Source: an uncultured Pirellulaceae bacterium (GTDB lineage Bacteria > Planctomycetota > Planctomycetia > Pirellulales > Pirellulaceae). Taken from it: 64,000 nt of DNA. The notes under the pieces were generated by a model. The model made no database searches and was not told the DNA's origin. It saw only the letters and a program-made list of their open reading frames with translations. Shown piece after piece: positions 3,629 through 39,003 of this stretch. The stretch is taken from assembly GCA_964384375.1 (NCBI GenBank), contig CAYLLN010000002.1:59248-123247 (forward strand), read 5' to 3'. Within the stretch, counting starts at the first letter, position 1; each line of letters starts with the position of its first letter. A program made the position numbers and the translations under genes.

Positions 3629-6600
3629 TCACTCAATCATCCGCCGCAGCTGCACGCAGTTATCCGTATTCAGCTTTTGCCCATGCACATATCCCACCGG
3701 CACGCTCCGGTCGATGATCGAAAAGAACCGATGCCGCCGAATCTCTCCCGAGTCGGCCCCAATCTCCGGCCCCAGCCGCAACCCATCGGGATGCGCGGCA
3801 TTCACCACGGTCACGCCCCCCTGCACGTTATCCTCCACCTCGAAATATCCGATCGTCATCCACACCGCAAACACGTTCGAATGGGTCGTGAACGTATTCC
3901 CCAGCTTCTGCAACGCCTGATAGCGGAAGTAGGCGTTGCGGCGGGCATCCTGGTGGACTTGCGTCGCCCCCTGATTGTCGAATAGCGGCTGCGTGGCGGT
4001 GTCGGGATCGGGCCGCAAGAGCGTCGATTCCACGGGTGTCGCCCGTCGCATCGGCACTCCGCTGACCGCGATGTTTGGCATCAGGTCCGCGGCATCGCTC
4101 GGCCGGAACGGATTGCCAAACAGCGTCGGAATCGGATTGCCCGAGCCATCGGTCAGGCCGAGTGGCCCGCCCGTGAACCCCCGGCGGCTACGGCTGACCT
4201 TGTCCACAAAGGGCTGCGTATTCATCCCCGGGAACTGGCCAATCGCCGAACTCCACACTTCGCTGTCAAAAATCGTATTGATATTGATCAAGCCCGGATC
4301 GCGGAATCGCGACATCTTGTTGAACGGCGGCCGGAACAAGCCCGCCGCGCCAAAGTTCGCCGGGTTGTACCATCGCTCCGCACCCGTATAAGGCGACGGC
4401 ACTTCGACATAGTCGAGCAGCCGGTGCCACTGCGGCGAATTGGCGACGGACGCGTCGCTGTGGAAGAAGTTATTGAGGTGCATGAACGGCGCTCGCAAGT
4501 TCTGCGGTTGGCCGTTGTTGTAAACGCTGTTCGCCCCTGCTGGCAGAAAAGTCCCCAGGCCCGACGAGAACTCGACAAACCGACGCGACGGCGAGCTCGA
4601 CGGCACCTGCAACAATTCGAACGGATTGGCAAACGGCCGATTCAAATGCACCAGCCACGGCGCGGTCACTCCCACGGAGGAATCGACCTCGCCCAGATAG
4701 CCGGTCATCGCATTGAGCGGCGTTCCCACGGTCGGATTGAGAAACGGCAGCGAGTGCCGCGTGTTGTCCAGGCTCGGACGGAACCAAAGGCTGGCCGGTC
4801 CGGTCGGAACGCCGTTGTCATTAGGGGCATCGGTCCAGGCTGGCCACGGGTTAACCGGCGTGACCGGCGCACCTTGCGGAATTCCCCGCTGTCGCGTCGC
4901 CCACTTCATATTCGGGCGGCCCATCTGGGGATCGGAGGGGTCCAGATCTGTCATGTTGGCCTGGCGGTCCGTGTCCTCCTCGCCCGTGAATACCGTCACG
5001 TCGAGCGCCGCCCAATCGACCGTAATGTACGGGTTGCTCGCCGCGTTGTACGGCAAGAGCGGATTGGCCAGCCGCTGCAAATACATCGACGCCGCGTCGG
5101 TGTACGTCCCGGTCTGCGTCATCTGCGCTTCGCCGAGCGGGAAATTGCCGCGACTGTCGTACGGCTCATCGGGAAACGTCTTCTGCGGCGTTTCGGGATT
5201 GTCGTAGAGGTCAGCCGGAAAATTCCCCATCGCCGGCGGCGGATTCGGCAACGGTTCGGGATAGTACACGCCGGACAATGGCTCAGTAATGTTTAGACCG
5301 ATCGACGTAGCCGTTCCCCACACCGCGCCATTGATCGCGTCGGTCGGCGTTCCTTGCACATTGGCCACGATCGGAATTGCCACACGAATTTGCGTACCAA
5401 CTCCCTGCGTCGTCACGGTGCCGCTGGTGTCGGTGATCGTCATTCCGCCCGGTCCAAGCGTCAGGGTTTGCTGCGAGAAATCACCCCAGGCTTGTTCCTC
5501 GGCCGGATTCGGCGGCACCGTGGCCGGCGGTCCAACGGTCGCCGGATTGTGCGAGCCGAGGTACGTGAGCGCACGTGGCCCCACGATCGCATACTGCCCC
5601 GGTTCGAGCAGCGGATAAGCATTGAACGTGTTGTCCGCATAGAAGCTGCCGGTGGCGAGGGGGGACGCGCCGACGGTAGCCGCCAGATTGGCCTGCGTAT
5701 TGAACCACAGGTAACGCTCGAGCGGCACCGTACCCGGTGGGCCGGTCGGCACATTGTTCGTCCAGTTGCCGGCGACCAGGCTCACATCCCGCGGCTGATC
5801 AATCGGCGCGGGAGATGTCGCCTCAAACGAGCCACTCTCCAACCGTTCGGCCCCACCTCCAACCGTCGCCATCACGTTCGGTTTGATAGCATTCGGAAAA
5901 TCAGCGTTGACGTCGTTATAGCTCAGCTCCGAAAACGCGATTCGCCACACGGGCCAACCGTCAGGGGCAAGCTTGCCCAGTTCCAATTGGCCACCCGCAT
6001 TGTACAGCTCGCGCGGCCAACGGGGCTTTTGGTTCGCGAACCCCGCTCCGGCCCAGTTCCAACCACGCGTGCAATACAGTTCGATAAAGACCGAACCCTC
6101 GGGGCGGCGATACTGATCGAGGTCATCGTCCGGATTGGTCGTCGCCGTTCGCAACTCTTGATCGCCACCATCGTCGTCGGTATCTCGCACGCGTCGATCA
6201 TGGAACACCAGCGACTCATTCAGCAGCAGCTCGGGACTCTCCACACCCCAGACCAATCGTCGCTCAGGATGCGTGTCGTCAGGAGAGGTTCCGCCCACAA
6301 TCCCATCCACGATCCAGCCGTTCCAAGGATTGATGTCGTATTCAAACGGCGTCATGATCGCGTCGCTGTCGCGGAAATCGACCACATTGACCGCCCATTG
6401 CGCGATGCGGCGGATGTACAGCTCTCGCTTCTGCTGTGGTGTCAGAGTTCCTTCGTGCGGAAAGTTGGCGTTGAAGTTCGTGTTGTCGAAGAACAGCATC
6501 ACCAGGCAGAACAAATGCCGGGCATAAAGCTGCCGGGCCATCGCCCGGTCGAACGAGTTCACCGCACCGTCGCCGTTCACATCCACGCCGTTCGCGTGCT

Positions 6601-9127
6601 CGGCGTTGATCCCCGTGAATCCAGTCGGGCCACCCAGCCACGCCGTCTCGCGCGGTCCGTTATACGGTGCCACGTTGTAAGGGTTGGCGTTGCCCGGATC
6701 TGCGAACGATTCCGTTGGGTCGTCGTTCACGAAGTCCCCTGTCGAATCAAATCCGTCCCCCAGCCAGCGGTTGATGTTGAACTTCCCGCCATGCCGCAAT
6801 TCCCACGGCACGATTTTGTAGAAATCTTGGGCCACGTTCGTCGAACCGCCGCCGGTGAGCCGCTGCACGTACAGGTCGAGAATCGTCCTCTGACCCGGCA
6901 CATTGTTCTCGCGGTTGATCTGCGTGACGGCTGCTGCACCCGAGACGGATGGCGGCGCGACCGTGCCCGGCACTGGCAGGGATGCGCCGTGCGTTCGGAA
7001 ACGTTCGCGGTTGTCGTGCGTGCCGTCGATGAAGCCCGGCGCGCTGTTCAGGTAGCCCGCGGCAGCGACCAGCGGCCGGCTGGGCAGGTACTGCGCATCG
7101 GGATCGTGATGCCGCAAGAGCCGCTCCATCTCGACCAACGTGTACGGCGAATCGGCGTTCGTCAGCTCGCCGGAAAGCGAAATCTCATATGGATTGTCGA
7201 GCATTTCGTTGTTCAGGCCCGAGTAGGTGCTGATCGGCTGGCCGCCGTAATCGAGGACGTACGCCCCGCGCCCCCAGACGTCGGGCGGACTCGAATACCA
7301 GTTCCCCTCGCCCGGATAGTTGTTCGGCACGCCGTGCAGTTTCACGATCGAGAAGCCGTCGCGCTGATTGGGAATGCCCGGACCCGCCGTGTTGCCGGTA
7401 TCAACCGTCGGGCCAAGGCCGGTCAGATTCGACGCATAACGCTGCCGCAAGATGTTCTCGTAAGTGGCAACGTCGGGAACTCCGCCGCTGGAAAAGATGT
7501 TGACGAGATTCACCTCCGCCGGGCCGAAGCCGACGCCGCGCGGAAGTTGCGCGTTGTTGGCCAGGCCGAGCGTCACATTGGTTTGCACCAAATGATTCGG
7601 CTGCAGCTGCGCCAGGTTCCCATGCGTGTTCAGGTCGAGCCGCCCGTCCATGTCCTTGACCAGAATCGCCACCAGCCGCTTGTAGCGCTTGCCGTCGGGC
7701 GACGTGACCACCGGCAGGCCTGGATCAATCCAGATGCTGTCGGGCGTTTGATCGTTGTCGTTGTCCACATCCCACAGATTGGCGACGACGGGAGGTAGCA
7801 TCATCGGCTGAGGAGCCGGCGCATCCGTCGGATCACGCTTGAGGCCACGCAGATGGAGCAGAATGTCCGCATTCGTCGAATCGAACGCTGGATTACTCCC
7901 CGTGAAATTCGGATGATCCCACGGCATGGGCCTAAAAATGCAACCTCGCGTGATCGAATAGATTCGGTCCAATTGTTCGATGGGAACTGTCGCGTCATCG
8001 ACCCCCGGTTCCCGGATACCATTGGGACCATAAGGCTGGGAAATGTACTGGTACTGGTCGGCGGGCTGATTCACACCGGCGGGAGCCAGGATGCTGTTAT
8101 TGATGTACGTCAACCAATAATTCACCAGCTCCTGCCGGTGATATGATGGCAGGATCGGCAAGTCGTTGTTTGCCGCGTTGTCGGAATTCAACCGCGCGGC
8201 GGTTGGCGGGACCATCGCCAAAAACATGTTCTGATAATCGACGGCATCCCACGATTCGTCGTGATGCGTGGCATTCAAATACGCATCAACTCCGGCTTGC
8301 TGGGCCACCCCGTTCAGGAAAATCTGGCCGCGCGTCGGATCGTAGCCGTTGAAGTGCGGCAAGAGTGAAACCAGATCGAGTGTCGGCGGCGCGGGAGTAA
8401 TCGACGCGAAAGACAGGTCGCCGTACTGCGCGTCCATGTTCTCCTGACCGCCGCCGGCATAGTCATAACCTGCCCCCGGCCCGTTGAACGGCGCGCCGTT
8501 GATCGCAAAGTGATTGTTCAGCACCGGCTGGTTGATCGTCTCGTGGGCCGAGTAGTCGAGTTCGATAATAAACTGGGGCCCGCCAGCCATCGTCGGATCG
8601 TACTGCAGGATGCGGGCGCTATAGTTCGCCGCCGGCCCTTCGGTGAACGTCAGCACGCGGCCGCTGTAGTAATCGAGTATCTCAATGAGCGGCCCACCTT
8701 GCGATTGCAAGGCCGTGGGAAGCACCTGAAACGCATATGCCTGGCCCCCCCAGAAAAAGCCGTTATTGGGAGCAGCCGTCGAAAAGACCTTGGTGTTGTT
8801 GGTGGTGTTTCCGTCCGCGTCCGTGTTATAGACCGTGTCGTTCCCATACAAGTCTCCCAGCAGGCTGTGATACCGCATTGCCGAGCGAGCCGCCGTGTCG
8901 TAAAGCAACTGCCCCAGGACCAGGTCGAACTCCTTCTCGGGGAGGTCGCCATATTCATTTTGGCGCACTTCGATCTTCGTCGTCTGGAAGTAGTTCGTCG
9001 CCAGGATGGCATACGTCACGCCAATCAGCAAAAACAGCGCGAGGAGCGACACGACGAGGAGCAGGATCACGCCCCGCTTCCGCTTCCCCTTTGCGGCTGA
9101 CAACTTGCCGACATTGTTCGACGCCAT
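3629..9127 (-). CDS. giant (1832 aa) GspK-like minor pseudopilin / fibre-tip protein
   Basis: The N-terminus KRKRG-VILLLVVSLLALFLLIGVTYAILA resembles the GspK leader plus hydrophobic helix and lacks Glu at +5. IAQWAVNVVDFRDSD (~6362-6385) resembles the GspK DWxDxD motif. DPGLININTIFDSEVW (~4274-4297) resembles the GspK INxNTA motif. The C-terminal SNVFAVWMTIGYFEV...RRHRFFSIIDRS looks like pilin-type beta strands. It is the last gene of the pseudopilin operon. Confidence 0.6.
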   Translation of the reverse strand: MASNNVGKLSAAKGKRKRGVILLLVVSLLALFLLIGVTYAILATNYFQTTKIEVRQNEYGDLPEKEFDLVLGQLLYDTAARSAMRYHSLLGDLYGNDTVYNTDADGNTTNNTKVFSTAAPNNGFFWGGQAYAFQVLPTALQSQGGPLIEILDYYSGRVLTFTEGPAANYSARILQYDPTMAGGPQFIIELDYSAHETINQPVLNNHFAINGAPFNGPGAGYDYAGGGQENMDAQYGDLSFASITPAPPTLDLVSLLPHFNGYDPTRGQIFLNGVAQQAGVDAYLNATHHDESWDAVDYQNMFLAMVPPTAARLNSDNAANNDLPILPSYHRQELVNYWLTYINNSILAPAGVNQPADQYQYISQPYGPNGIREPGVDDATVPIEQLDRIYSITRGCIFRPMPWDHPNFTGSNPAFDSTNADILLHLRGLKRDPTDAPAPQPMMLPPVVANLWDVDNDNDQTPDSIWIDPGLPVVTSPDGKRYKRLVAILVKDMDGRLDLNTHGNLAQLQPNHLVQTNVTLGLANNAQLPRGVGFGPAEVNLVNIFSSGGVPDVATYENILRQRYASNLTGLGPTVDTGNTAGPGIPNQRDGFSIVKLHGVPNNYPGEGNWYSSPPDVWGRGAYVLDYGGQPISTYSGLNNEMLDNPYEISLSGELTNADSPYTLVEMERLLRHHDPDAQYLPSRPLVAAAGYLNSAPGFIDGTHDNRERFRTHGASLPVPGTVAPPSVSGAAAVTQINRENNVPGQRTILDLYVQRLTGGGSTNVAQDFYKIVPWELRHGGKFNINRWLGDGFDSTGDFVNDDPTESFADPGNANPYNVAPYNGPRETAWLGGPTGFTGINAEHANGVDVNGDGAVNSFDRAMARQLYARHLFCLVMLFFDNTNFNANFPHEGTLTPQQKRELYIRRIAQWAVNVVDFRDSDAIMTPFEYDINPWNGWIVDGIVGGTSPDDTHPERRLVWGVESPELLLNESLVFHDRRVRDTDDDGGDQELRTATTNPDDDLDQYRRPEGSVFIELYCTRGWNWAGAGFANQKPRWPRELYNAGGQLELGKLAPDGWPVWRIAFSELSYNDVNADFPNAIKPNVMATVGGGAERLESGSFEATSPAPIDQPRDVSLVAGNWTNNVPTGPPGTVPLERYLWFNTQANLAATVGASPLATGSFYADNTFNAYPLLEPGQYAIVGPRALTYLGSHNPATVGPPATVPPNPAEEQAWGDFSQQTLTLGPGGMTITDTSGTVTTQGVGTQIRVAIPIVANVQGTPTDAINGAVWGTATSIGLNITEPLSGVYYPEPLPNPPPAMGNFPADLYDNPETPQKTFPDEPYDSRGNFPLGEAQMTQTGTYTDAASMYLQRLANPLLPYNAASNPYITVDWAALDVTVFTGEEDTDRQANMTDLDPSDPQMGRPNMKWATRQRGIPQGAPVTPVNPWPAWTDAPNDNGVPTGPASLWFRPSLDNTRHSLPFLNPTVGTPLNAMTGYLGEVDSSVGVTAPWLVHLNRPFANPFELLQVPSSSPSRRFVEFSSGLGTFLPAGANSVYNNGQPQNLRAPFMHLNNFFHSDASVANSPQWHRLLDYVEVPSPYTGAERWYNPANFGAAGLFRPPFNKMSRFRDPGLININTIFDSEVWSSAIGQFPGMNTQPFVDKVSRSRRGFTGGPLGLTDGSGNPIPTLFGNPFRPSDAADLMPNIAVSGVPMRRATPVESTLLRPDPDTATQPLFDNQGATQVHQDARRNAYFRYQALQKLGNTFTTHSNVFAVWMTIGYFEVEDNVQGGVTVVNAAHPDGLRLGPEIGADSGEIRRHRFFSIIDRSVPVGYVHGQKLNTDNCVQLRRMIE

Positions 9128-9228: not shown

Positions 9229-10326
9229 TCATTCCAGCCGAATCGTCTTCTCATACACGCCGACGACCCCTTCGACGACGACGGCGCGCGGGTTCGTCGC
9301 CGTCGTGTCCCAGTCGGAGCCGGCCAGCGTGACGTACCGCTCGTAATTGGTTCCGTTGTACGTGACCTCGGCTTCGGTATCGCTCACACGGTACCACTTG
9401 AACGTGGGAACCAAGGTCGATTGTGCGTTGGAGACGCGCCCCGACAACATCAACCAGTCGTTCGGCCGCAGGTTGAGCGCCGCCTCGGTTGCTGCGGTGA
9501 GTAGCACCTCGCCGCCGCCGACGCCGCCGCCCGTGAAACCGACGTTCACCGTTCGTTCGTCGGCCAGGGAAAACGTCGCGGCCCCCTCGTCATAGCCGAA
9601 GCTCGTCGGTCGGTCGTAGAACACGACGATCGACAGCACGTAGTTCTCGTTGAAGGTTGCCGTATAACGTTCGAGCTTCGGTACTACCGTCGCCATCCAC
9701 GACATGTGACCGTCCGTGAGACGCCGGGCACGTGTGCCAACGACCGAAGGCAAGTCCTCAAATTCCTGCGTCGGCGCGAGCGAGTTGTCGTCGGGCCGCT
9801 GGTAGGTGAGATCATCACTAATGGTGAAGACCGAATCCGCCAGTAGCTTCCCCATTGGTTGTGTCGTTGGGCCGTTGTTGCTGACCGTGCAGCGCAGCAT
9901 GGCTGCTTCACCGGTCGTCGCGTCGTAAGGAAACTGCCTCGCACCAGTACGGCGTGCCGGAGTAGCGTCATTGGCCGCGATCATCCGCGGATCGATGCAG
10001 AATGCGTTGCCATAAACGAATGGCAGCGAAGCCAGCGGCATTCCCGACACCAGCCGATATTGCGGCGTTCCGTTGGGATCCCAGGCAATCCACGACGACA
10101 TCCCGCGCCGCATGCCGCGGGCGTCGAATTCGTGAACGCAGGTCATGGCGGCGACGGCCGTGGCGTCGTTGATTCGCCCCTTGCGGGCCTGGGAGCTGGC
10201 GACGGGGAGCAAGGCCAACGCGCCGAACAGGCCGATCGTCGTCACCAGGATGGCGAACAGCACCTCGATGAGGCTCACGCCGCGGCGCAACTTGGAACCT
10301 GAAACTTGGAACTTGGAACGTTGCAT
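9229..10326 (-). CDS. prepilin-type N-terminal domain protein, large minor pseudopilin (GspJ position)
   Basis: ATG at 10326 overlaps the upstream stop (TGATG). Leader MQRSKFQVSGSKLRRG followed by VSLIEVLFAILVTTIGLFGALALL, with Glu at +5. An alternative in-frame TTG at 10290 would give the leader MRRG. Confidence 0.7.
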   Translation of the reverse strand: MQRSKFQVSGSKLRRGVSLIEVLFAILVTTIGLFGALALLPVASSQARKGRINDATAVAAMTCVHEFDARGMRRGMSSWIAWDPNGTPQYRLVSGMPLASLPFVYGNAFCIDPRMIAANDATPARRTGARQFPYDATTGEAAMLRCTVSNNGPTTQPMGKLLADSVFTISDDLTYQRPDDNSLAPTQEFEDLPSVVGTRARRLTDGHMSWMATVVPKLERYTATFNENYVLSIVVFYDRPTSFGYDEGAATFSLADERTVNVGFTGGGVGGGEVLLTAATEAALNLRPNDWLMLSGRVSNAQSTLVPTFKWYRVSDTEAEVTYNGTNYERYVTLAGSDWDTTATNPRAVVVEGVVGVYEKTIRLE

Positions 10327-11540
10327 CACTGGCCTCCCGTCAATTCGCGGCCGGTGGCCAGGGCCCGGCATTCTTCGAGGAACTCGGCCCGGTCGGCCCC
10401 CCACGGATCGGCACTGTGATTGGCGTGATCCACGTCGGGGAAGTTTTCGCTGGTCGTGATCGAGCCATTCAGCCGGCCGACGCTGACCCAGAAGTTGTTG
10501 GGATCGCCGAGGTTCGAGTTGGCGGCGGTGATCGGCACTCCCGTCACATCCTGAGCCACCTTCTCCACGCGACCGATGAGAAAGTGCAGCGTTCCCAGGG
10601 GCGCATCACCGAAACCGCCGTCGAGCGAGACGCTTTTCACCGAGCCACCCGGCTCAAACAACAGCACGAGGCGGTTGTTGGCCGCGCCGAACTGCGTGCC
10701 GGTCGGTCCGTAACCGCTGTATTCGATGTCGATGCAGGTGCCTGCGGAAAGCTCCAGCGGATTGCCAACGCGCCGCGGCTGGCGAAGTATTTGATAGCGA
10801 AAGCCGTAGGACGCTCCGTTGCCAGCACCGGGGGGCTGCACGGAACTGGACGTTGGTCCGACGTAATAGAAGCGACTGGGATCGGGGTATGTCGCATTGC
10901 CGGTCAGCCCGCGAACGCAGCCGTACCAATCTCCCTTGAAATCGAACCGGACCATGAACGCTTCGCCCGGCTCGATGAGATTCTGCAGGTAAACAATTTC
11001 GTTGTTATCGGTGTCGATTCGACCGTCGGGCGGGCCGGGCAGCACGTCCGTGCCGGTTAGCGGAACGAATTGAAATGGATCGTTCGTGGGATCAGGTTCG
11101 CGGCGAATGATCGCCCGCGACGACGTGGTGCTGCCGGAATACGGCGCCTGCACCTCGGCCAGATAAATGCGGGTGACCTGGCGGACGAAGTTGCCGGGCG
11201 AGTCCACGTGTCCCACCGGCGCGTCGTATTCCATCCACAAACCGAACGGGCGGTTGTTGCGGGCGGCATAGGCGCGGGCCATCGCCAGGTGGCCGTTGAG
11301 CTGGCGACTTGCCTCGCGGGTCCGGTTGCTCTCCATCACGCTCTTGGCCACCGGCAGCGCTGCCGCGATGAGGATCAGGATGATCATCACCACGACGAGG
11401 AGCTCGACGAGCGTGTAGCCCGCGCGGGGCTGGATTGGCCCCAATGTCGCCGTTCGCTCCGCGAACGGGCGTGCTTCCCGACGTTCGTTCGCGGAGCGAA
11501 CGACGACAATCGAGCGGTCGTATTGGCAAGTGCTAAGCAT
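10326..11540 (-). CDS. prepilin-type N-terminal domain protein, large minor pseudopilin (GspI position)
   Basis: Motif PRAG-YTLVELLVVVMIILILIAAALP. ATG at 11540 overlaps the upstream stop (TAATG) but gives a 41-aa leader that spans a REP hairpin. An in-frame TTG at 11444 would give the leader MGPIQPRAG. Confidence 0.7.
   Translation of the reverse strand: MLSTCQYDRSIVVVRSANERREARPFAERTATLGPIQPRAGYTLVELLVVVMIILILIAAALPVAKSVMESNRTREASRQLNGHLAMARAYAARNNRPFGLWMEYDAPVGHVDSPGNFVRQVTRIYLAEVQAPYSGSTTSSRAIIRREPDPTNDPFQFVPLTGTDVLPGPPDGRIDTDNNEIVYLQNLIEPGEAFMVRFDFKGDWYGCVRGLTGNATYPDPSRFYYVGPTSSSVQPPGAGNGASYGFRYQILRQPRRVGNPLELSAGTCIDIEYSGYGPTGTQFGAANNRLVLLFEPGGSVKSVSLDGGFGDAPLGTLHFLIGRVEKVAQDVTGVPITAANSNLGDPNNFWVSVGRLNGSITTSENFPDVDHANHSADPWGADRAEFLEECRALATGRELTGGQ
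11452..11501. repeat. perfect 16-bp inverted repeat (REP-like hairpin)
   Basis: GTTCGCTCCGCGAACG (11452-11467) and CGTTCGCGGAGCGAAC (11486-11501) with an 18-nt loop. Lies in the leader region of the 10326-11540 gene. Confidence 0.85.
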
Positions 11541-12634
11541 TACTGCGGCTCGATGAAGTGGTTGGTGATGTTGTCGGCCCAGCTTTCGGTGCCATTACCG
11601 TCGCGGTCGCCGACGGTTCCGGGCAAATACCCGTCTGCAAAGACGTTGAACGGAAGCGGATAGTTGTTGTCGGTAGGAGGCATTCCCGGAACTGGGCAAT
11701 AACGGTGTGAGGGTGTTGGAGCGAGGTTATCGGTAAAGATATCAAACTCTTTATCGAGACCCGACGAAACAATCAGTGGCTTGAGCGCATATCGTGGACC
11801 GTCAACGCCCAGAGGATCAAACGGATCGGGTGCCTCTTGCGTATTGCGCGTCAGCAAAGTCGTGGACATAATGATGTCGTCGCTACCGGTGGCCAAATAC
11901 TCGCTGTAATCATCGGTGGTTGAATTTCCATCGTCGTCCGTCCCGGCCACGCCCCATTGGCTATCGGGACCCGGTTGTTGCTGCGTGTATCCCGCAGGCC
12001 AACGAATGAAGAGAATGGGGCGTCCAAAGCCGTCGAGAATCTCTTTCATTCCATCGCCATCGAGATCGCCGATCTCATCCGGCGTGAAGAAGTCGAGCGA
12101 GCTTTTGTCGCCGTCCTTCATCGTTGAGAGAATCAAATACAAACACTCCGATCCCTGTAAACCAACCGACCATCCGCCGGAATCCCAAGTCGCCCCTGCA
12201 TGACGGGCCGCTTGGCGGCGATAGCTATTTCGCAGCGAAGGCGATGCTAGAAAATCATTTTGTCCTACCGTCGGATTGATGTCGGCCGGAGGATCAACAA
12301 CATCACTGACTCGATCTGGGATTTCCATCCGCATCAAATCTCGAATCGCCAACAAGCGGACCTGCGCCGCGACCTGGGGACTAGTTCCTGCAGGAATTCG
12401 GAAAGGTATCGCCCGCGTGCGGTAGCTTTCGTAACGCTCCATGATGAGCGTGTCGATCTTGTTGATCTGCGAACGCGTGCGGGCGACGCGGGCGTCGTTG
12501 ACGGCGCTGACCAGGCCGGAGAGGGCGAGGCCCGCGAGGATGCTGATGATCGTGATGACGATCAGGAGCTCCATCAACGTAAAGGCGGAGCGGGACAATT
12601 TCGGATTTCGGATTTCAGATTTCGGATTGGGCAT
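11540..12634 (-). CDS. prepilin-type N-terminal domain protein, large GspG/H-like pseudopilin
   Basis: Leader MPNPKSEIRNPKLSRSA followed by FTLMELLIVITIISILAGLAL (Glu at +5). Contains DLDGDGMKEILDGFGRPILF, resembling the GspG DPWGNPY region with a Ca-site-like DxDxDG. An alternative in-frame TTG at 12598 would give the leader MSRSA. Confidence 0.75.
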   Translation of the reverse strand: MPNPKSEIRNPKLSRSAFTLMELLIVITIISILAGLALSGLVSAVNDARVARTRSQINKIDTLIMERYESYRTRAIPFRIPAGTSPQVAAQVRLLAIRDLMRMEIPDRVSDVVDPPADINPTVGQNDFLASPSLRNSYRRQAARHAGATWDSGGWSVGLQGSECLYLILSTMKDGDKSSLDFFTPDEIGDLDGDGMKEILDGFGRPILFIRWPAGYTQQQPGPDSQWGVAGTDDDGNSTTDDYSEYLATGSDDIIMSTTLLTRNTQEAPDPFDPLGVDGPRYALKPLIVSSGLDKEFDIFTDNLAPTPSHRYCPVPGMPPTDNNYPLPFNVFADGYLPGTVGDRDGNGTESWADNITNHFIEPQ

Positions 12635-12657
12635 GGCAGCACCCCGTCGCGAGGACC

Positions 12658-12672
12658 GCGACCACTGGTCGC
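12658..12672. repeat. module B palindrome GCGACCACTGGTCGC
   Basis: Located in the 49-nt gap between two pseudopilin genes. Same palindrome family as at 2839, 2879 and 3504. Confidence 0.8.
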
Positions 12673-12683
12673 GGCTATGTGTG

Positions 12684-13631
12684 TTACGGGATGTGGTCTT
12701 CGAGACGGCGGCCTTCGCTGAAGTTCGTCATGTTGTCCCGGTCGCCGTCTTGATACGGTCCGCCGCCGCCGGGAAAGAACTTGATCGCAGCAGGCGAGGC
12801 ATCGAGGCCGAAATCGCCGTCTTGGCCAGCGCAGAGTATCTGGAACGTTGTCGGATTCATCTGCTTGTATTGCTGGCCAATCGGCAGCGAGGTATCCGTG
12901 CTGGCCTTGTTTTCCGACCAATACGGCCTGGCATAGTAGCCATCGGCGTTATTGCCATCGGCGTAAGCAGCGTAGTTGCGGTCCGTAAAGTCCGAAACGA
13001 AGTAGTTGTAGGCCCGGCTGTCGATGTAGATGTAGCACGTGTCTTTGGAATAGAGTGCGCGATAGGCCGGGAATTGGTCCGTGTCGCTCGCGTTTACAAA
13101 GCGATCTTCCTTGAACGGATAGAGCTTCTCGGGCGACTTGGACGCGAGCAATGCATCTTGGGCCGTTGTCACTTGATAGGTGTCGGCATTATTGAGGCCA
13201 TCTGCCGCTTTGAAGGGATAACGCGGGTCGTTGTCCACCAGGTAGAGCCAGAAAACGAGCGATTCTCCTTCGTCGAGCAGCGGAACTGCCGTCACGGGCG
13301 GGGGATTCGCCGTGGTGTAGTTCACGTCGTTCCAAATCGTCCCGATCACATCATTCAAATGGTTCTTGTCGATCTTCGGATAACATTTTTGAACGTGACG
13401 AATGAACTGGTTATAGACGCGGAAGTTCGGCGGGTAGTCGCCTCGCTTCTGCTTGTATTGCTCCACGGCCTTGTCGAGCGCTGAAATCTCCGCCCCAATC
13501 GCCGCGCGGCGGGCGTTGTTCACTGCCGACATGACCGCCGGCATGAGCAGGGCGACGAGGACGGCGATGATGCCCAGGACCACGAGCATTTCGACCAGCG
13601 TGAAGCCGCGAAGGGATCGGTTGGCGGACAT
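12684..13631 (-). CDS. GspG-like major pseudopilin candidate with long C-terminal extension (315 aa)
   Basis: Leader MSANRSLRG followed by FTLVEMLVVLGIIAVLVALLMPAV, then ISALDKAVEQYKQKRGDYPP, which matches the GspG pattern L..AL..Y..D.G.YP. It is the first pilin gene after gspF, as in T2SS operons. Confidence 0.75.
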   Translation of the reverse strand: MSANRSLRGFTLVEMLVVLGIIAVLVALLMPAVMSAVNNARRAAIGAEISALDKAVEQYKQKRGDYPPNFRVYNQFIRHVQKCYPKIDKNHLNDVIGTIWNDVNYTTANPPPVTAVPLLDEGESLVFWLYLVDNDPRYPFKAADGLNNADTYQVTTAQDALLASKSPEKLYPFKEDRFVNASDTDQFPAYRALYSKDTCYIYIDSRAYNYFVSDFTDRNYAAYADGNNADGYYARPYWSENKASTDTSLPIGQQYKQMNPTTFQILCAGQDGDFGLDASPAAIKFFPGGGGPYQDGDRDNMTNFSEGRRLEDHIP

Positions 13632-13732: not shown

Positions 13733-15145
13733 CTAGCTCAAGCCTTGGATGAGCGAAATGAGCGGGAGGAACAGGGCGATGACGATGAAGCCGACCGCAC
13801 CGCCGAGAAAGACGATGAGGAGAGGCTCGATCAATTTCATGAGGCCGTCGGTGAGCGTGGTCACTTCCTCGTCGAAGAGGTCGGCGACCTTGTAGAGCAT
13901 CGTGTCGAGCTCGCCCGTTTCTTCGCCGACGTCGACCATGTTCACGACCAGTTCATCGACGAACCGGGCGTTCATTTTCAAGAGGTACCAGCAGCAACCG
14001 AGAAAACCGGCGCCAAACAGACCCAACATGAGCCATTGCAAGCCGATCTGCGCGATCATCCCCGGCATCGACATGATGATGAGCGGGACCAGCGCCCCGC
14101 TCATGAACCAAAGGAAAAGGGCGACGGGATGAAAGCCGGGGCGGCCGTTGGCGGCCATCGGCCGGGCGATCGTTTCGCCCTCGCGGATGGCGTCGGAGAC
14201 TTTGCCGTACATCCGCTCGAAGACGGCATTGCCGGCCGTTTCGCGGGTGATGTTCAGCCCTTCGAGAATGGGGACGCCGGAGGAGACGAGCGTGCCGAGG
14301 GTACGCGTCGTGCGGGCCATCGTGTTCTTCTCGATGAGCATGCCGATGATGGGCCATTTGAGGACGAACATGTCCCAGCCCATGCGGCCGTGCTTGAACT
14401 TTTTGAGGAGCTTGACAAACAGCCAGATCACGACCGGGATGAGGGGGATCGAGAACCAGCCGTATTTGACGACCCAGTTGGAGATGTTGATGAGGATGAC
14501 CGTCATGACGGGGAGCTTGAGGCCGAACTCCTCGAACATCTTTTGGAAGACGGGGACGATCTTGAGCATGATGAACGTGAGGATGCCGACGGCGACGAGG
14601 ATGACGACGATCGGGTAGATCATCGCCCCCTTCACTTTGCGTTTGAGTGATTCGCTCCGTTCGAGAAACTCGGAGAGGCGACGGAGAATGACTTCCAGAG
14701 CGCCGCCCGCCTCGCCCGCCTTGATCATGTTGATGTAAAGGCGGTTGAAGACCTTGGGAGATTTGGCCATCGCCTCGGAGAGCGTGGCCCCCGATTCGAT
14801 TTCGTCGCCGACGTCGGCGATGGCGTTTTTCAGGCGGCCAGGCTTTTGCTGTGCTTCCAGAATGCGGAGGCTGCGGAGAATCGGCAGGCCGGCATCCTGT
14901 AGAATCGAGAGCTGCTTGGTGAAAAGCGCGAGCTTTTTGGAGCTGGCGCCGCCAAAGGACATGCTCCGTTTCTTTTTGCCGCCGGCCATGCCGGGCTTGG
15001 CCTGCCCCTTCTTCACAGAGATCTTGGTGACGAAGTAGCCCATTTGGCGAATGGTCGCCTGGGCTTCTTCTTCGCTCTGGGCGTCGATCACATCCTTGAT
15101 CTCCTGGCCCGTCGCGTCCATCGCTTCGAATTGATAAGTCGGCAT
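13733..15145 (-). CDS. gspF: type II secretion / type IV pilus platform protein GspF/PilC family
   Basis: MPTYQFEAMDATGQEIKDVIDA... N-terminus. Two T2SSF repeats (KQLSILQDAGLPILRSL and RTLGTLVSSGVPILEGL). VGEETGELDTML motif. 470 aa because of an extra hydrophobic insertion. Confidence 0.9.
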   Translation of the reverse strand: MPTYQFEAMDATGQEIKDVIDAQSEEEAQATIRQMGYFVTKISVKKGQAKPGMAGGKKKRSMSFGGASSKKLALFTKQLSILQDAGLPILRSLRILEAQQKPGRLKNAIADVGDEIESGATLSEAMAKSPKVFNRLYINMIKAGEAGGALEVILRRLSEFLERSESLKRKVKGAMIYPIVVILVAVGILTFIMLKIVPVFQKMFEEFGLKLPVMTVILINISNWVVKYGWFSIPLIPVVIWLFVKLLKKFKHGRMGWDMFVLKWPIIGMLIEKNTMARTTRTLGTLVSSGVPILEGLNITRETAGNAVFERMYGKVSDAIREGETIARPMAANGRPGFHPVALFLWFMSGALVPLIIMSMPGMIAQIGLQWLMLGLFGAGFLGCCWYLLKMNARFVDELVVNMVDVGEETGELDTMLYKVADLFDEEVTTLTDGLMKLIEPLLIVFLGGAVGFIVIALFLPLISLIQGLS

Positions 15146-15224: not shown

Positions 15225-16943
15225 TTAGGCTTCTAGGATCGTTTCTCGAACCACTTCGTCCAGCGTCGTCGTGCCTTCGAAGGCGAAGTTCAATCCCGCT
15301 TCACGGAGCGAGACCATACCAGCACTCTGAGCTGCCTTGCGGAGGTCGTCGATCGAGGCGTTGTTCATCACCAGGTCGCGCAGCTCGTCGTTCATCAGCA
15401 TCAGCTCGAAGAGGCCGACGCGACCCTTGTAGCCCGTGTTGTTGCAGACTTCGCAGCCGCGGCCGCGGAAGACCTTTTTGCCGATCATCTCCTCGACCTT
15501 CTTGCCCAGGTCCAGGAGGAGTTCTTCCGACGGCGTGACTTCCTCGCGGCATTGGCTGCAGACGCGGCGGACGAGGCGCTGGGCGAGAATTGCCTCGACG
15601 GTGGCCGTGATGAGGAACGTGGGGACGCCCATGTCCTTCATGCGGGTGATCGTGCTCGGGGCGTCGTTGGTGTGCAGCGTGCTGAATACCATGTGGCCGG
15701 TGAGCGAGGCCTGCACGGCGATTTGCGCCGTCTCCAGATCGCGGATTTCGCCGACGAGGATGATGTCGGGGTCTTGCCGCAGAATGGCCCGGAGGCAGGC
15801 GGCAAAGGTGACGTCGATCTCGGCATCGATGGGAATCTGTACGATGCCGTCGATGTCGTATTCGACGGGGTCCTCGGTGGTAATGAGCTTGTCTTCGAGG
15901 CTGTTGAGCTCGCTGAGGGCGGAATAGAGCGTGGTTGTTTTGCCCGAACCGGTGGGCCCGGTGACGAGCACAATGCCGTTGGGGCGAGCGATGACTTCGC
16001 GGAAGGCCTTGAGCGTGGGGGGGTCCATGCCGACCTTGCCCAAGTTGAGCGAAACGACCGAGCGATCGAGCACCCGGATAACGACGCTTTCGCCGAACAT
16101 CGTGGGGAGAACTGCGACGCGGAGATCGACGGGGTGGCCGCCGACCGTGAGCTCGATGCGACCGTCCTGCGGGAGGCGGCGCTCGGCAATATCGAGGTTC
16201 GCCATCACTTTGATGCGGGTCGTAATGGCAAACGCCAGGTGGCGCGGCGGCGGCACCATTTCGAACAGCACGCCGTCGGCTTTGATGCGAATGCGGAATT
16301 CGTCCTCGAAAGGCTCGAAGTGGATGTCGCTGGCGTGATCCTTGATCGCCAGGAGGAGCACCATGTTGAGGAGCTTGCGGACGGGAGCGCTGTCGGCCAG
16401 GGCCTCGACATCGGCGAGTTCCATCGGCTTGCCCGCCTCCAGGGCGCTCATCGTCTTCTTCAGGGTCGCGTCCTCTTCGATATCGGTGATGATCTTTTCG
16501 ATCGTGTCCTTCTCGGACGAGTAGTACTTGTCGATCGTCTTCATGACGTCGGTTTCGCCGGCGATCACGACCTTGACCTCGTGCCCGAGGAGCGAACGCA
16601 GCTCATCCTGAATCGTGATGTTCTGCGGATCGCACGTGGCGACGGTGAGGCGATTCCCCTCAAAGTGGATCGGGATGGCGCGGTAGAGCTGGGCCATCGA
16701 CTCGGTCACCCGCTTGAGCACGTCGTGCGGGATCGTCATCTCGCCGAGATCGACGATCTGCATCCCCATCTGCTCGGAAAGGGCCTGCACGAGCTGCTCT
16801 TCGGTGAGCATGTTCAGGTCTTGGGCGAGCTTGCCGATCAGCGTGCCGGGGCGCTGCTGCTGCTCTTCGAGCAACATCTGGAGTTGCTCGTCGGAGATGA
16901 AGCCCATATCGACGAAGATTTGACCGATGCGACGGATAGCCAT
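15225..16943 (-). CDS. gspE: GspE/PilB-type assembly ATPase with MshEN-like N-terminal domain
   Basis: Walker A GPTGSGKTTT. Asp box and His box (LTGHMVFSTLHTNDAPS). Tetracysteine CSQC...CEVC. N-terminus RIGQIFVDMGFISDEQLQMLLEEQ. Confidence 0.92.
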   Translation of the reverse strand: MAIRRIGQIFVDMGFISDEQLQMLLEEQQQRPGTLIGKLAQDLNMLTEEQLVQALSEQMGMQIVDLGEMTIPHDVLKRVTESMAQLYRAIPIHFEGNRLTVATCDPQNITIQDELRSLLGHEVKVVIAGETDVMKTIDKYYSSEKDTIEKIITDIEEDATLKKTMSALEAGKPMELADVEALADSAPVRKLLNMVLLLAIKDHASDIHFEPFEDEFRIRIKADGVLFEMVPPPRHLAFAITTRIKVMANLDIAERRLPQDGRIELTVGGHPVDLRVAVLPTMFGESVVIRVLDRSVVSLNLGKVGMDPPTLKAFREVIARPNGIVLVTGPTGSGKTTTLYSALSELNSLEDKLITTEDPVEYDIDGIVQIPIDAEIDVTFAACLRAILRQDPDIILVGEIRDLETAQIAVQASLTGHMVFSTLHTNDAPSTITRMKDMGVPTFLITATVEAILAQRLVRRVCSQCREEVTPSEELLLDLGKKVEEMIGKKVFRGRGCEVCNNTGYKGRVGLFELMLMNDELRDLVMNNASIDDLRKAAQSAGMVSLREAGLNFAFEGTTTLDEVVRETILEA

Positions 16944-16948
16944 GGGAG

Positions 16949-17056
16949 CAGGGTTCAGGGTTCAGGGTTCAGAAGTTGCAGGTCGGAGGTCGGAAGTCAG
17001 AGGTCTGATGGCGATTGAATGTCTCAAATCTGAAATCTGCAATTTGAAATCTGAAA
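16949..17056. repeat. three word-repeat blocks filling the pilT-gspE intergenic region
   Basis: CAGGGTTCAGGGTTCAGGGTTCAGA (16949-16973, identical to 60215-60239). GGTCGGAGGTCGGAAGTCAGAGGTC (16981-17005). CAAATCTGAAATCTGCAATTTGAAATCTGAAATT (17025-17056). Confidence 0.9.
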
Positions 17057-18214
17057 TTAGTGGCCGCCGTGGCCGCCGCCGGGTTTGGGGGCGGCGTTCA
17101 GGTCTTCGCCCGGCTTCATACCCGCGTTGGGGTCTTCCATGATGCCGCGTTGGTGATTGACGATCCGTTTGGCGAGTTCGTCCGGATTGTGGGCTTTCGA
17201 CAGGACTTCCTCGATGACGCACTTCTCTTCCTTCCAGAGCTTGAAGAGGGCGTCGTCCATGAGCTGCATGCCGAATTTGGCCCCGGTCTGAATCGCCGAG
17301 TTGATGCGGAATGTTTTGTTCTCGCGGATCAGGTTCGCGATGCCGGGCGTAACGACGAGGATTTCGTACGCGGCACAGCGGCCGCCGCCGACCTTGGGAA
17401 GAAGCGTTTGTGCGACAACGCCGATGATCGCCGTGGAAAGCTGCGTGCGGATCTGGTCCTGCAAGTTGCCGGGGAAGGCGTCGATGATGCGGTTGATGGT
17501 GCCCTGGGCGCTGTTCGTGTGCAGCGTGCCGAAGACGATGTGCCCCGTTTCGGCGGCGGTAATGGCCGATTCGATCGTTTCCAGGTCGCGCATTTCGCCG
17601 ACGAGGATCACGTCCGGGTCTTGGCGGAGGGCGCGGCGAATCGCCTCGGAAAAGCTCGGCACATCGACGCCGATCTCGCGCTGGTTGATCGTCGATTTTT
17701 TGTGCCAGTGATAAAACTCGATCGGATCTTCGATTGTGATGATGTGGTGATCGACGTTCTCGTTGATGTAGTTGACGAGGCTGGCCAGGGTGGTGCTCTT
17801 GCCCGAGCCGGTGGGGCCGGTGACCAGGAACAGACCGCGGGGGCGAAGGACGAGCTTCACGCAGACGTCGGGCAGGCCGAGCTGCTGCGGCGTGAGCATG
17901 TTGTTCGGAATCTGCCGCAGCACCATCGAGACATTGCCGCGCTGCTTGAAGATCGAAACGCGGAAGCGGGCCAGGTCGCCGAACGCAAAGCCAAAGTCGG
18001 CGCTCCCCTTTTCCTGCAGCTCCTTCTGGCAGCGGTCGGGTGCGATGCTCTTCATCAGAGCCACGGTGTCGTCGGGCTCGAGCACCTTCGTTTCGAGCTT
18101 GCGCATGCGGCCGTGCAGTCGGAAGACCGGCGGCTGGCCGACGACGATGTGAATATCGCTGGCTCCCTGCTTCACGCAGGCTTGGAGCAGCTTATCGATG
18201 AGAATGGTGGCCAT
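17057..18214 (-). CDS. pilT: PilT-type twitching-motility (retraction) ATPase
   Basis: MATILIDKLLQACVKQGASDIHI N-terminus. Walker A GPTGSGKSTT. GHIVFGTLHTNSA. PilT signature variant GIANLIRENK. No N-terminal T2SSE_N domain. Gly/His-rich C-terminal tail. Confidence 0.92.
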   Translation of the reverse strand: MATILIDKLLQACVKQGASDIHIVVGQPPVFRLHGRMRKLETKVLEPDDTVALMKSIAPDRCQKELQEKGSADFGFAFGDLARFRVSIFKQRGNVSMVLRQIPNNMLTPQQLGLPDVCVKLVLRPRGLFLVTGPTGSGKSTTLASLVNYINENVDHHIITIEDPIEFYHWHKKSTINQREIGVDVPSFSEAIRRALRQDPDVILVGEMRDLETIESAITAAETGHIVFGTLHTNSAQGTINRIIDAFPGNLQDQIRTQLSTAIIGVVAQTLLPKVGGGRCAAYEILVVTPGIANLIRENKTFRINSAIQTGAKFGMQLMDDALFKLWKEEKCVIEEVLSKAHNPDELAKRIVNHQRGIMEDPNAGMKPGEDLNAAPKPGGGHGGH

Positions 18215-18438
18215 GAGCGATCCCCACGGAGCGAGCGCGACATACCACGTGCGAAGACATCTCGCGCGGCGGCGGCACTAGAACCCGTGTATGTGAACGA
18301 AAGGTGCGGGAGCGATGAAGATCGCACACCCACAGCGTGTCGTTGTGCTTCAGCTAGAGGTCTGTTCCGAACTCTGAGCAAATCCAGGGGGGGCAGCGAA
18401 TCGTGATGGGATGAAATAAAGGAAGAGTCCGCCTGCAA

Positions 18439-18543
18439 TTCACTGCACTTCAATCGTGTCGCGCGGGACCGGTCGATCCGGCGACGCTGTGATTATTCGC
18501 CAGCCGATGCGCCAAGGCGAAACTGGGAACGAAGTGCAGTGAA
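18439..18543. repeat. 13-bp perfect inverted repeat with 79-nt spacer in the long pilT upstream region
   Basis: TTCACTGCACTTC (18439-18451) and GAAGTGCAGTGAA (18531-18543). Confidence 0.7.
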
Positions 18544-18668
18544 ATAGTCGCTGCTTTCAGTTTAATTGGTGCAGGTGGATGGGTGCGAGGAAAAACCACC
18601 GACTGTGAGCAAGCTTCCAGCCTGCCAAACCACTCCGACCACAGTGGTCGAGCACGTCTTCAACGTCG

Positions 18669-18686
18669 CGCGGTGCAAGCACCGCG
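18669..18686 (-). terminator. GC-rich hairpin just downstream of the gspE2 stop (weak terminator candidate)
   Basis: On the minus strand, CGCGGTG-CTTG-CACCGCG (7-bp stem, 4-nt loop) lies ~35 nt after the stop at 18721. A CGACCACTGTGGTCG palindrome follows. There is no U-tract. Confidence 0.3.
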
Positions 18687-18720
18687 GCGGAAATGACGGA
18701 CTTAGTTCAGCGAGTATGCA

Positions 18721-20448
18721 CTACGCCGTAATCACGTCCTGCTCGGTCCGCTTGGCATTGCGATAGACCTCTTCCAGCGTCGTGACCCCTTTCACGACCT
18801 TGGCAATTCCATCGACGTAAAGCGTTTTCATCCCTTGAGTTATCGCTTGCTTGCGGATTTCGACCGACGAGATGTTCTGAAAAATCATCTCGCGAATTTT
18901 GGAGTTCACCAGCATCAGCTCGAAGATTCCCTGGCGGCCGCGGAAGCCACCCTTGTTGCAGTTGGAGCAGCCTTTGCCCTTCGAGAAGTGAGCCTTGGCG
19001 GCCATCTTGGCCGGAATCCCGGCATCGCGGATGACGCTTTCGGGCAGTTGAATTTGCTGTTTGCACTTGGGGCAGATGATGCGGACCAGACGCTGGGCCA
19101 AAACCGCAATAACGGAAGAGGCAACCAGATAGTTGGGTACTCCGATATCGACCATGCGCGTCACAGCACTAGGCGCATCGTTCGTGTGTAGAGTACTGAA
19201 AACTAAGTGTCCAGTTAAAGAAGCCTGGATACCCATGCTTGCCGTTTCATTGTCGCGCATTTCGCCGACGAGGATGATGTTCGGGGCTTGTCGCAGCATC
19301 GAGCGGATAATGCGTGCAAAGTCGAGCCCGATGCTGTGCTTCACCTCGACCTGGTTGATACCGGGCAGGTAATACTCGACCGGCTCCTCGGCGGTGATGA
19401 TCTTTCGATCAGGTCGGTTGAGGGCGTTGAGGGCGGCATAGAGGGTCGTGGTCTTGCCGGAACCAGTCGGCCCCGTGACCAGGATGATGCCGTTGGGACG
19501 GCGGATGAGCTGAGTGAACGTCTGAAAGTTCTCGTCCGACAGGCCAAGCTGTCGCACCCCCACTTTGATGTTGTCCTTGTCGAGGATACGCATGACCACG
19601 GACTGGCCGTGGTTCGTGGGGATGATGCTGACGCGGAGATCCAGGTCCTTGTCGCCGGCAGTGATCTTGATGCGGCCGTCCTGCGGACGGCGGCGTTCAG
19701 CAATGTCCATTTTCCCCAGAATCTTGATGCGGGAAACGATGGCAGCGAGCAAGCGGCGGGGCGGGCTGTCACGTTTGTGCAGCATGCCGTCAATTCGATA
19801 ACGAATGCGGACGACGTCCTCGAACGGCTCGACGTGGATATCCGAGGCCCGAAGCTGCACCGCCTCTTTGATCATCAGGTCCACGAGGCGGACGATCGGG
19901 GCGCTGTTCTCATCGACCTGCTCGGTGGCCCCCACCGCGGTGGTGGTCGCTGTTTCCGTGAAGTCGATTGCCGTGTCGGTGAATTCCTGGAGCACCGAGT
20001 CGGCCGATTCGCCTTCGATCTGGCTGTAATACTTGTTGATCGCTTCGAGGATTTTCTCGCGGGGGGCGAGGGCGATTTCGATCCGGCGATTCAGAATAAA
20101 TCGGAGCTTTTCGACCGTGTCGATGTCGTAGGGATCGCTGACGATCACCTTCAGGGCGTCCTCATCCTCGGCCAACGGGAGGATGACGTTCTCGCGGGCG
20201 ACCGATTCGGGGACGAGTTCGATGATTGGCTCGGGAATCGCCACTTCGGTCAGATCGACGTAATCGCGGCCGTGCTCCTGGGCGACGGCCCGCATCACGT
20301 CCTCGCCGGAGGCGTAGCCAAGCTTGATGATGCACTCGGCCAGGCTGCTGTTCTGGTCCTTGCTGACCTGCCGGGCCTCGTTGAGCTGATCCTGGCTGAT
20401 GATGCGGCGGCGGAGGAGGATTTCGGTAAAGTCGCCTTTGCGAGCCAC
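18721..20448 (-). CDS. pilB: second GspE/PilB-type assembly ATPase
   Basis: T2SSE_N-like N-terminus. Walker A GPTGSGKTTT. LTGHLVFSTLHTNDAPS. Tetracysteine CPKC...CSNC. 575 aa. Confidence 0.92.
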   Translation of the reverse strand: MARKGDFTEILLRRRIISQDQLNEARQVSKDQNSSLAECIIKLGYASGEDVMRAVAQEHGRDYVDLTEVAIPEPIIELVPESVARENVILPLAEDEDALKVIVSDPYDIDTVEKLRFILNRRIEIALAPREKILEAINKYYSQIEGESADSVLQEFTDTAIDFTETATTTAVGATEQVDENSAPIVRLVDLMIKEAVQLRASDIHVEPFEDVVRIRYRIDGMLHKRDSPPRRLLAAIVSRIKILGKMDIAERRRPQDGRIKITAGDKDLDLRVSIIPTNHGQSVVMRILDKDNIKVGVRQLGLSDENFQTFTQLIRRPNGIILVTGPTGSGKTTTLYAALNALNRPDRKIITAEEPVEYYLPGINQVEVKHSIGLDFARIIRSMLRQAPNIILVGEMRDNETASMGIQASLTGHLVFSTLHTNDAPSAVTRMVDIGVPNYLVASSVIAVLAQRLVRIICPKCKQQIQLPESVIRDAGIPAKMAAKAHFSKGKGCSNCNKGGFRGRQGIFELMLVNSKIREMIFQNISSVEIRKQAITQGMKTLYVDGIAKVVKGVTTLEEVYRNAKRTEQDVITA

Positions 20449-38785: not shown

Positions 38786-39003
38786 AAGGTCTCCTCGCGG
38801 AAGATCAAGGATTCAGTTTCCAGGGTGCAAGACGCGAAGCAGCGAGAGCAGGTGCAACAGCATCGTAATCCGTAGCTGGTCGCGGCGAAACCAGCGGGAG
38901 CCACCTGGTGACATCGCCCGTCGCGGCACGCTTGTTGAACCACGCGCGATCCCCTGCGAAGATGTCGAGTGCCCCGCCTTCTCGCACCTGCCTGGAATCC
39001 CTC

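Follow-up and report, generated by a model that had tools for sequence, protein, structure and literature searches.

A giant Glu5-less pilin-like protein conserved in Pirellulales, a candidate GspK/PilK-class tip subunit of a type IV filament machine

A 64,000-nucleotide stretch of the genome of an uncultured Pirellulaceae bacterium (GCA_964384375.1, contig CAYLLN010000002.1, positions 59,248 to 123,247 of the forward strand; hereafter the window) encodes a very large Glu5-less pilin-like protein, the giant, in a single unbroken frame of 1,832 codons plus stop (3629..9127, (-)). We lean towards interpreting the giant as the GspK/PilK-class tip or initiator ('first') subunit, of ~200 kDa, of a type IV filament machine of the order Pirellulales, in which it probably combines the role of PilK with that of a PilY1-like head. 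First-subunit pilins are recognised as the sole member of their set without Glu5, as the largest one, and as the one encoded 3'-most in the cluster (Ng et al. 2016, PMC5207764), and all three features are found in the giant. Its body of ~1,700 residues is family-specific, structurally novel, and conserved end to end. An earlier note, made from the letters of the window alone, had described this open reading frame (ORF) as an Asn/Gly/Pro-rich and Cys-poor protein with GspK hallmarks. The composition is borne out (G 9.3%, P 9.1%, N 7.8%, four Cys), and an ORF and translation check recovers the frame and all quoted motifs, although the nucleotide positions given for the motifs are off by ~20 nt.

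The giant begins with MASNNVGKLSAAKGKRKRG, followed by a putative cleavage point and VILLLVVSLLALFLLIGVTYAILA. Its basic leader (9071..9127, (-), residues 1-19) ends in KRKRG, with a putative prepilin-peptidase site after Gly19, and is followed by a GspK-like segment (8807..9070, (-), residues 20-107) that comprises a hydrophobic alpha1N without Glu5 and an amphipathic alpha1C, as delimited by hhalign and by the helices of an AlphaFold2 (AF2) model. Gly is present at -1 in essentially all family members, Arg at -2 in 92/109, and Val or Ile at +1 in 98/109, giving an RG/[VI] pattern (the slash marks the putative cleavage point); the RG/V junction of the giant matches the GspK pattern. In the alignment, this junction is conserved in the manner of a processing site. 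None of 119 members has an acidic residue at +1..+20, and position +5 is occupied by V, I, M, or L. When compared by hhalign with a GspK profile (25-sequence alignment seeded with Escherichia coli, enterotoxigenic E. coli (ETEC), and Pseudomonas aeruginosa), giant residues ~13-107 align with GspK 1-~100 (Prob 42-85%, E 6e-6 to 2.6e-4), with a score of 38.7 vs. 21.2 for the best of 40 column shuffles and 20.4 for the reversed profile. Against single E. coli pseudopilins, the N-terminus scores highest with GspK (34.9, P = 4.6e-5), ahead of GspJ (26.8), GspH (21.6), GspG (21.0), and GspI (18.4). The Glu5-less, GspK-type N-terminus proposed from the letters alone is thus upheld. A home-made HMMER model of GspK matches the N-terminal region alone, in 37 members, and the N_methyl motif (PF07963 / TIGR02532) was not detected in the giant or in 26 homologs.

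A short basic N-terminus, one transmembrane helix, and a large C-terminal part also describe the topology of PilN/O or GspM. The giant could accordingly be a bitopic inner-membrane protein with an uncleaved signal anchor and a ~1,750-residue periplasmic scaffold rather than a filament subunit, which would span the enlarged planctomycete periplasm and replace GspC/L/M or PilN/O/P. In line with such a role, genes for a secretin, PilM/N/O/P, and GspC/L/M are found neither near the giant nor in the conserved cluster, and Foldseek detects no pilin fold in the two AF2 halves of the protein. We nevertheless regard a scaffold as unlikely, as the RG/[VI] junction is kept like a peptidase site and the N-terminus favours GspK over the other pseudopilins, with a match that reaches the non-hydrophobic alpha1C. 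Moreover, four Glu5 pilins and one Glu5-less protein fit a G-H-I-J-K set, and a scaffold leaves no obvious role for the invariant extreme C-terminus.

This pilin set is encoded in a cluster whose order, [PilB2]-PilT-PilB1-GspF-pp1-pp2-pp3-pp4-giant, is invariant in the ~60 loci with enough flank, most of which contain exactly four Glu5-type prepilin motifs within 6 kb upstream of the giant. The cluster encodes five pilin-like proteins, and Glu5 is missing solely from the last and largest of them, the giant. The other four all bear a G-[FYV]-[TS]-L-x-E motif with Glu5: the GspG-like prepilin pp1 (12684..13631, (-), 315 aa, GFTLVEMLV), a candidate major subunit; pp2 (11540..12634, (-), 364 aa, AFTLMELLI); the GspH/FimU-like pp3 (10326..11540, (-), 404 aa, GYTLVELLV); and the PilV/GspI-like pp4 (9229..10326, (-), 365 aa, GVSLIEVLF). 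The giant, 3'-most and largest of the five-pilin set, therefore does sit where gspK would, as had been claimed. GspK/XcpX/PulK proteins (PF03934 + PF21687; PDB 3CI0, 5VTM) resemble it in this position and relative size, in their basic RG leader and Glu5-less hydrophobic alpha1, and in a conserved C-terminal strand, with ~90 alignable N-terminal residues and a weak match over the beta1-beta2/FNLN region. In contrast, the giant is 5.6 times longer, lacks a significant T2SSK hidden Markov model (HMM) or fold match, and does not yield the GspK alpha-domain motifs, and its operon differs from canonical type II secretion system (T2SS) operons in having PilT and two MshEN-type ATPases.

Minor-pilin genes followed by the gene of a very large protein are also known from fimU-pilVWX-pilY1 and mshD-O-P-Q (PMC13533445). 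Like the giant, PilY1/PilC and MshQ combine great size and this gene position with a conserved extreme C-terminus, which is fixed in the giant family, and with acidic Ca-type loops; their systems share with that of the giant a PilT, as in retractile type IVa pili, and an ATPase with an MshE-type N-domain. The giant might by this comparison be a non-pilin tip adhesin that donates a strand in trans to a PilK-like protein among pp2-pp4, its N-terminal helix being a mere export signal or anchor. We consider this quite unlikely because the cluster encodes no other Glu5-less pilin: pp1-pp4 all keep Glu5, so that the cluster would be without a K-class subunit, whereas PilY1/MshQ clusters contain a separate Glu5-less PilX/MshP gene. 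The N-terminus is also a pilin-type, GspK-like RG-hydrophobic helix and not a Sec signal peptide. The PilY1 beta-propeller (PF05567 / IPR008707) is represented by neither a Pfam match nor a propeller neighbour in the PDB, MshQ, DUF6701, and LamG domains are absent from the giant and the 26 homologs in Pfam and NCBIfam scans, and Foldseek gives no signal for any of these folds.

The giant family is genuine, large, and ancient. A database search found 195 homologs; among the 120 listed, nearly all cover ~98-100% of the query, with lengths of 1,545-2,326 aa, and all are either labelled 'hypothetical protein' by their source or nameless, none with a Pfam domain. The named source organisms are Pirellulaceae, Pirellulales, Thermoguttaceae, Anatilimnocola, and Blastopirellula. 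When every GTDB species was scanned through a single genome, at least 556 genomes proved to contain a relative, and the giant and its filament machine are universal in Pirellulales. In the 80 loci examined the frame is unbroken wherever the contig permits, and the length from Gly(-1) to the C-terminus is 1,571-2,199 aa (median 1,772) in 49 fully scored loci. The family is conserved over its whole length, with segments neither gained nor lost as modules. That the ORF might be a fusion artefact of several genes, an alternative named in the earlier note, is ruled out by the full-length homologs (n = 195), the at least 556 genomes, and the unbroken frames: related genomes keep full-length frames intact and the protein is conserved end to end, and the proposed refutation therefore fails.

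We further ran a profile of the C-terminal part (residues 1583-1832) against 1.84 billion representatives, obtaining 1,339 matches at E<=1e-30, a number that rises to 3,572 at E<=1e-3. The matched domain stops at the protein's own C-terminus in 150/150 of the representatives listed. The strong matches correspond to ~1,300 clusters at 50% identity, part of which may be fragments; the weaker ones (E 1e-30 to 1e-3) may likewise include fragments, or else remoter and perhaps shorter relatives in other lineages. No bridging relative outside the family is seen among the best 120-150 matches listed per search, which are filled by the giant family itself. Natural mini-versions of the giant were also considered, and all eight short matches read (293-803 aa, from the top of the listing) turned out to be 5'-truncated ORF fragments. 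A literature search found no publication describing the family, and the giant is probably an outsized filament-tip protein not previously described.

The remainder of the protein was compared with GspK in a block test, in which blocks of the GspK profile were aligned by hhalign with the profile of the whole giant family, with shuffled and reversed nulls. The GspK beta1-beta2/FNLN block (67-125) is matched best by giant residues 454-512 (VDNDNDQTPDSIWIDPGLPVVTSPDGKRYKRLVAILVKDMDGRLDLNTHGN vs. KDNDRQTTLQQYWAQPQQLQLEDGNTVKWQLRDAQHCFNLNALA; P = 0.008, reached by 0/40 shuffles). This match is weak, but it is colinear with the N-terminal one (GspK 67-119), and a Fisher combination of the two blocks gives P ~1e-5. 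Thus, the GRLDLNTHGN region, which had been noted merely as an 'additional' motif, does count as GspK evidence together with the N-terminus. The matched segment (7592..7768, (-)) contains an acidic DxDxDG-type loop, W466-x-D-P, and KDMDGRLDLN as invariant columns, at a predicted local distance difference test (pLDDT) score of 81-89; in the family alignment, the loop D453-x-D455-N-D-x-D459-G is invariant. The quoted motifs WDVDNDNDQTPD and GRLDLNTHGN lie here at residues 452-463 and 494-503, respectively, followed further downstream by GKFNINRW (781-788) and DVNGDGAVNSFD (847-858).

The two motifs on which the earlier note had placed the GspK comparison are AQWAVNVVDFRDSD (6362..6403, (-), residues 909-922; family-invariant A909, Q910, N914, R919, D920, and D922) and GLININTIFDSEVW (nt 4253-4294, (-), residues 1612-1625), the latter within the block RDPGLININTIFDSEVW (ININT; 4253..4303, (-), residues 1609-1625), which is conserved better than any other in the family. 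Their spacing of ~700 residues in the giant was given correctly, but in ordinary GspK (E. coli, ETEC, P. aeruginosa) it is ~65 residues and not ~100. Neither motif rises above the null in the block test, and both are therefore not evidence for GspK homology.

These and several other results weigh against assigning the giant to the GspK class. The GspK DWxDxD block has no match at the AQWAVNVVDFRDSD site or elsewhere (P = 0.18-0.58), the NxNT block falls on ININT but equals the score of the reversed profile (P = 0.043), and the C-terminal-strand block is unmatched, with a best P of 0.12 at a non-colinear site. Among the 26 homologs, the best E-values are 0.18 for T2SSK (PF03934, 2/26) and 0.43 for NF037980 (1/26), and PDB sequences are matched neither by phmmer with the single sequence nor by the family profile. 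Foldseek searches with both AF2 halves found no PDB chain at E<0.2 and no pilin or GspK fold, the latter having its alpha-domain inserted in the beta-sheet (3CI0, 5VTM); these halves never join alpha1 and the C-terminal strands of the protein in one model. In addition, the gene directly upstream of the giant is PilV/GspI-like and not GspJ-like, so that the canonical I-J-K order is not evident, and the size of a ~190-kDa head may exceed what a secretin can accommodate. For the giant of the window itself, Pfam and NCBIfam contain no match to T2SSK (PF03934), T2SSK_1st (PF21687), or GspK, and scans with both libraries yielded nothing significant in the giant or the 26 homologs. Formal T2SSK membership is not established because the HMM search, which had been suggested as a check, returned no significant match; profile similarity does not extend across the full length of GspK and is confined to GspK 1-~100 and 67-119. 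The giant probably works like, and distantly derives from, a GspK-class subunit.

The spread of the motifs had tentatively been explained by a canonical GspK fold into which adhesin or enzyme domains of separate evolutionary origin were inserted. The colinearity of the best block matches and the presence of acidic Ca-type loops would agree with this, but we regard it as largely refuted and highly improbable. The family is conserved from end to end, shows no modular gain or loss, and varies in length only between 1,571 and 2,199 aa. Pfam domains, enzyme motifs, internal repeats, and PDB or BFVD neighbours are all lacking, and matches to the GspK alpha-domain motifs stay below significance. Rather than a series of recognisable modules, the body forms a single unit specific to the family. 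A windowed hhalign search for internal repeats gave nothing significant, the best P being ~0.03 for the LDLN vs. ININT regions. This weak reciprocal profile similarity (P ~0.03 each way) connects residues ~450-640 with ~1490-1740, containing the KDMDGRLDLN and RDPGLININT regions; the two regions could go back to an ancient duplication within the protein, and the same might hold for the two FNLN/NVNT motifs of GspK.

AF2 models of sufficient confidence for structure searches were obtained for residues 1-1000 (pLDDT 75.9, predicted template modelling score (pTM) 0.73) and 861-1832 (pLDDT 74.5, pTM 0.79). The N-terminal model contains a 40-residue helix (20-59) followed by a second helix (63-76), resembling pilin alpha1. 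Its noise-level Foldseek matches are small closed beta-barrels (the N-terminal barrels of F1-ATPase and HerA, the Upf1 1B domain, and L35Ae). Going by the predicted strands at 113-209 rather than by the Foldseek output, these would be placed at ~110-210 (nt ~8498-8800), and the first insert after alpha1 may open with a small beta-barrel. The C-terminal half has no Foldseek match in the BFVD, and its model finishes with a helix and then five strands (1752-1828).

This C-terminal beta-strand region (3632..3880, (-), residues 1750-1832), which ends in ...CVQLRRMIE, contains the candidate in-cis terminal beta-strand. The extreme C-terminus reads [TV]D..[VI]L[LV][RK]RxI[ED]-stop in 117/119 members, and conservation is high over the last ~40 residues, although the C-terminal model, built in isolation, gives them a low pLDDT, as expected if the pairing partner is absent from that model. 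The AF2 model and the alignment show in the giant the trait of a terminal-strand donor, with ~10 conserved C-terminal residues as a beta-strand. In known systems, the PilK-type sheet receives its last strand either in cis, as in GspK and the ~600-aa CpaL/TadG, or in trans, from the extreme C-terminal end of PilY1 or MshQ (Ellison et al. 2026, PMC13533445). CpaL/TadG of the Tad system (T4c pili), a PilK analogue, shares with the giant a pilin-like N-terminus, a large middle part, and a C-terminal beta-strand, and its middle of ~470 residues is partly dispensable (PMC13533445). By analogy, the architecture of the giant, in which a GspK-like alpha1 is followed by a huge middle and finally by an invariant candidate terminal strand, would fit the in-cis version at a far larger scale. 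CpaL differs, however, in its length of ~600 aa, in belonging to a Tad system, and in lacking a detectable sequence relationship, and the in-cis pairing demonstrated for CpaL is a candidate feature in the giant. Tentatively, the giant could go further and represent an in-cis fusion of the tip functions of PilK/PilX and PilY1, in which the Glu5-less anchor and the licensing strand bracket a head with a new fold at the tip of a retractile fibre; we see this as a possibility that is open to considerable doubt.

Interpreted as a GspK/PilK-class first subunit, the giant would be processed by the prepilin peptidase after Gly19, and alpha1N would anchor the mature protein in the inner membrane. Without Glu5, it would be restricted to the top position of the filament, where, together with the upstream minor pilins, it may nucleate assembly upon the GspF platform. 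The body, presumably stiffened by its DxDxDG-type acidic (probably Ca2+) loops, would then be carried at the filament tip, where it may serve as a head for adhesion or ligand capture, or else as a piston head or stopper in the periplasm. Finally, the last ~10 residues might fold back as the terminal beta-strand and complete the pilin-type sheet in cis.

Pilins with additional bulk are known from other bacteria. In modular type IV pilins (Streptococcus sanguinis PilB, ComZ, CofB/TcpB), as in the giant, a pilin module is combined with bulky extra structure at the tip (PMC8179133), and the largest catalogued has 860 aa (Raynaud et al. 2021, PMC8179133). Unlike the giant, these proteins have InterPro-recognisable modules and Glu5 N_methyl motifs (IPR012902), neither of which was found in the giant. 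In a lineage of the Planctomycetes-Verrucomicrobia-Chlamydiae (PVC) superphylum, a large protein beside several prepilin-type genes is exemplified by Verru_Chthon cassette protein A (TIGR02600). The giant differs from it in that TIGR02600 is unmatched at E<=5 among 26 members, and in an NCBIfam scan the N-termini of pp2-pp4 weakly match Verru_Chthon cassette proteins B, C, and D.

In the window, the cluster starts with a second PilB/GspE-like ATPase (18721..20448, (-); MshEN domain), followed by the PilT-like retraction ATPase (17057..18214, (-)), the PilB/GspE extension ATPase (15225..16943, (-); MshEN domain), and the GspF/PilC platform protein (13733..15145, (-)). The arrangement of two paralogous MshEN-bearing PilB/GspE-type ATPases flanking a PilT-like ATPase (15225-20448) is kept across Pirellulales loci. 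MshEN is an N-domain of the type that binds cyclic di-GMP (c-di-GMP). Three ATPases arranged in this way favour a retractile filament, possibly under c-di-GMP control, over a classical T2SS. The four upstream pilins (9229-13631) are oversized, with 315-404 aa vs. ~130-200 aa for typical pseudopilins, and match known pilins (PDB or NCBIfam) in their N-terminal ~60 residues only; no equivalent of GspJ/PilW can be clearly named among them. One-base overlaps between the pp3 stop and the probable pp4 ATG (10324-10328) and between the pp2 stop and the pp3 start (11540-11542) suggest translational coupling. A start at 11540 would give pp3 a 40-residue leader, and its real start may be an internal non-ATG codon.

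Antisense to the giant lies an 814-aa ORF (5354-7798, (+)), and the window is rich in other long antisense ORFs; these are by-products of the ~62% GC content and not genes. Elsewhere in the window, a 1,023-aa protein (38908-41979, (+)) combines DUF7133, HEAT repeats, and a C-terminal cytochrome c domain and has no relation to the giant.

GspK/PilK-class first subunits and large tip adhesins are established as concepts. As an in-cis fusion of the PilK/PilX and PilY1 functions, the giant would exceed every known pilin-type subunit by far. A pilin-type protein of ~200 kDa would surpass the largest modular pilin of the PMC8179133 survey (860 aa) more than twofold in size, and would bring the roles of PilK and PilY1 together in a single chain. 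The giant also provides a natural test, in a distant phylum, of the recently proposed model of 'licensing' by a terminal beta-strand, and its family, with neither a Pfam domain nor a structural neighbour, is a clean target for the discovery of a new fold and a new function. Pirellulales are an ecologically important order, to which a fibre tipped by this protein could serve for attachment or for the capture of macromolecular substrates, and the giant may thus hint at what planctomycete fibres bind.

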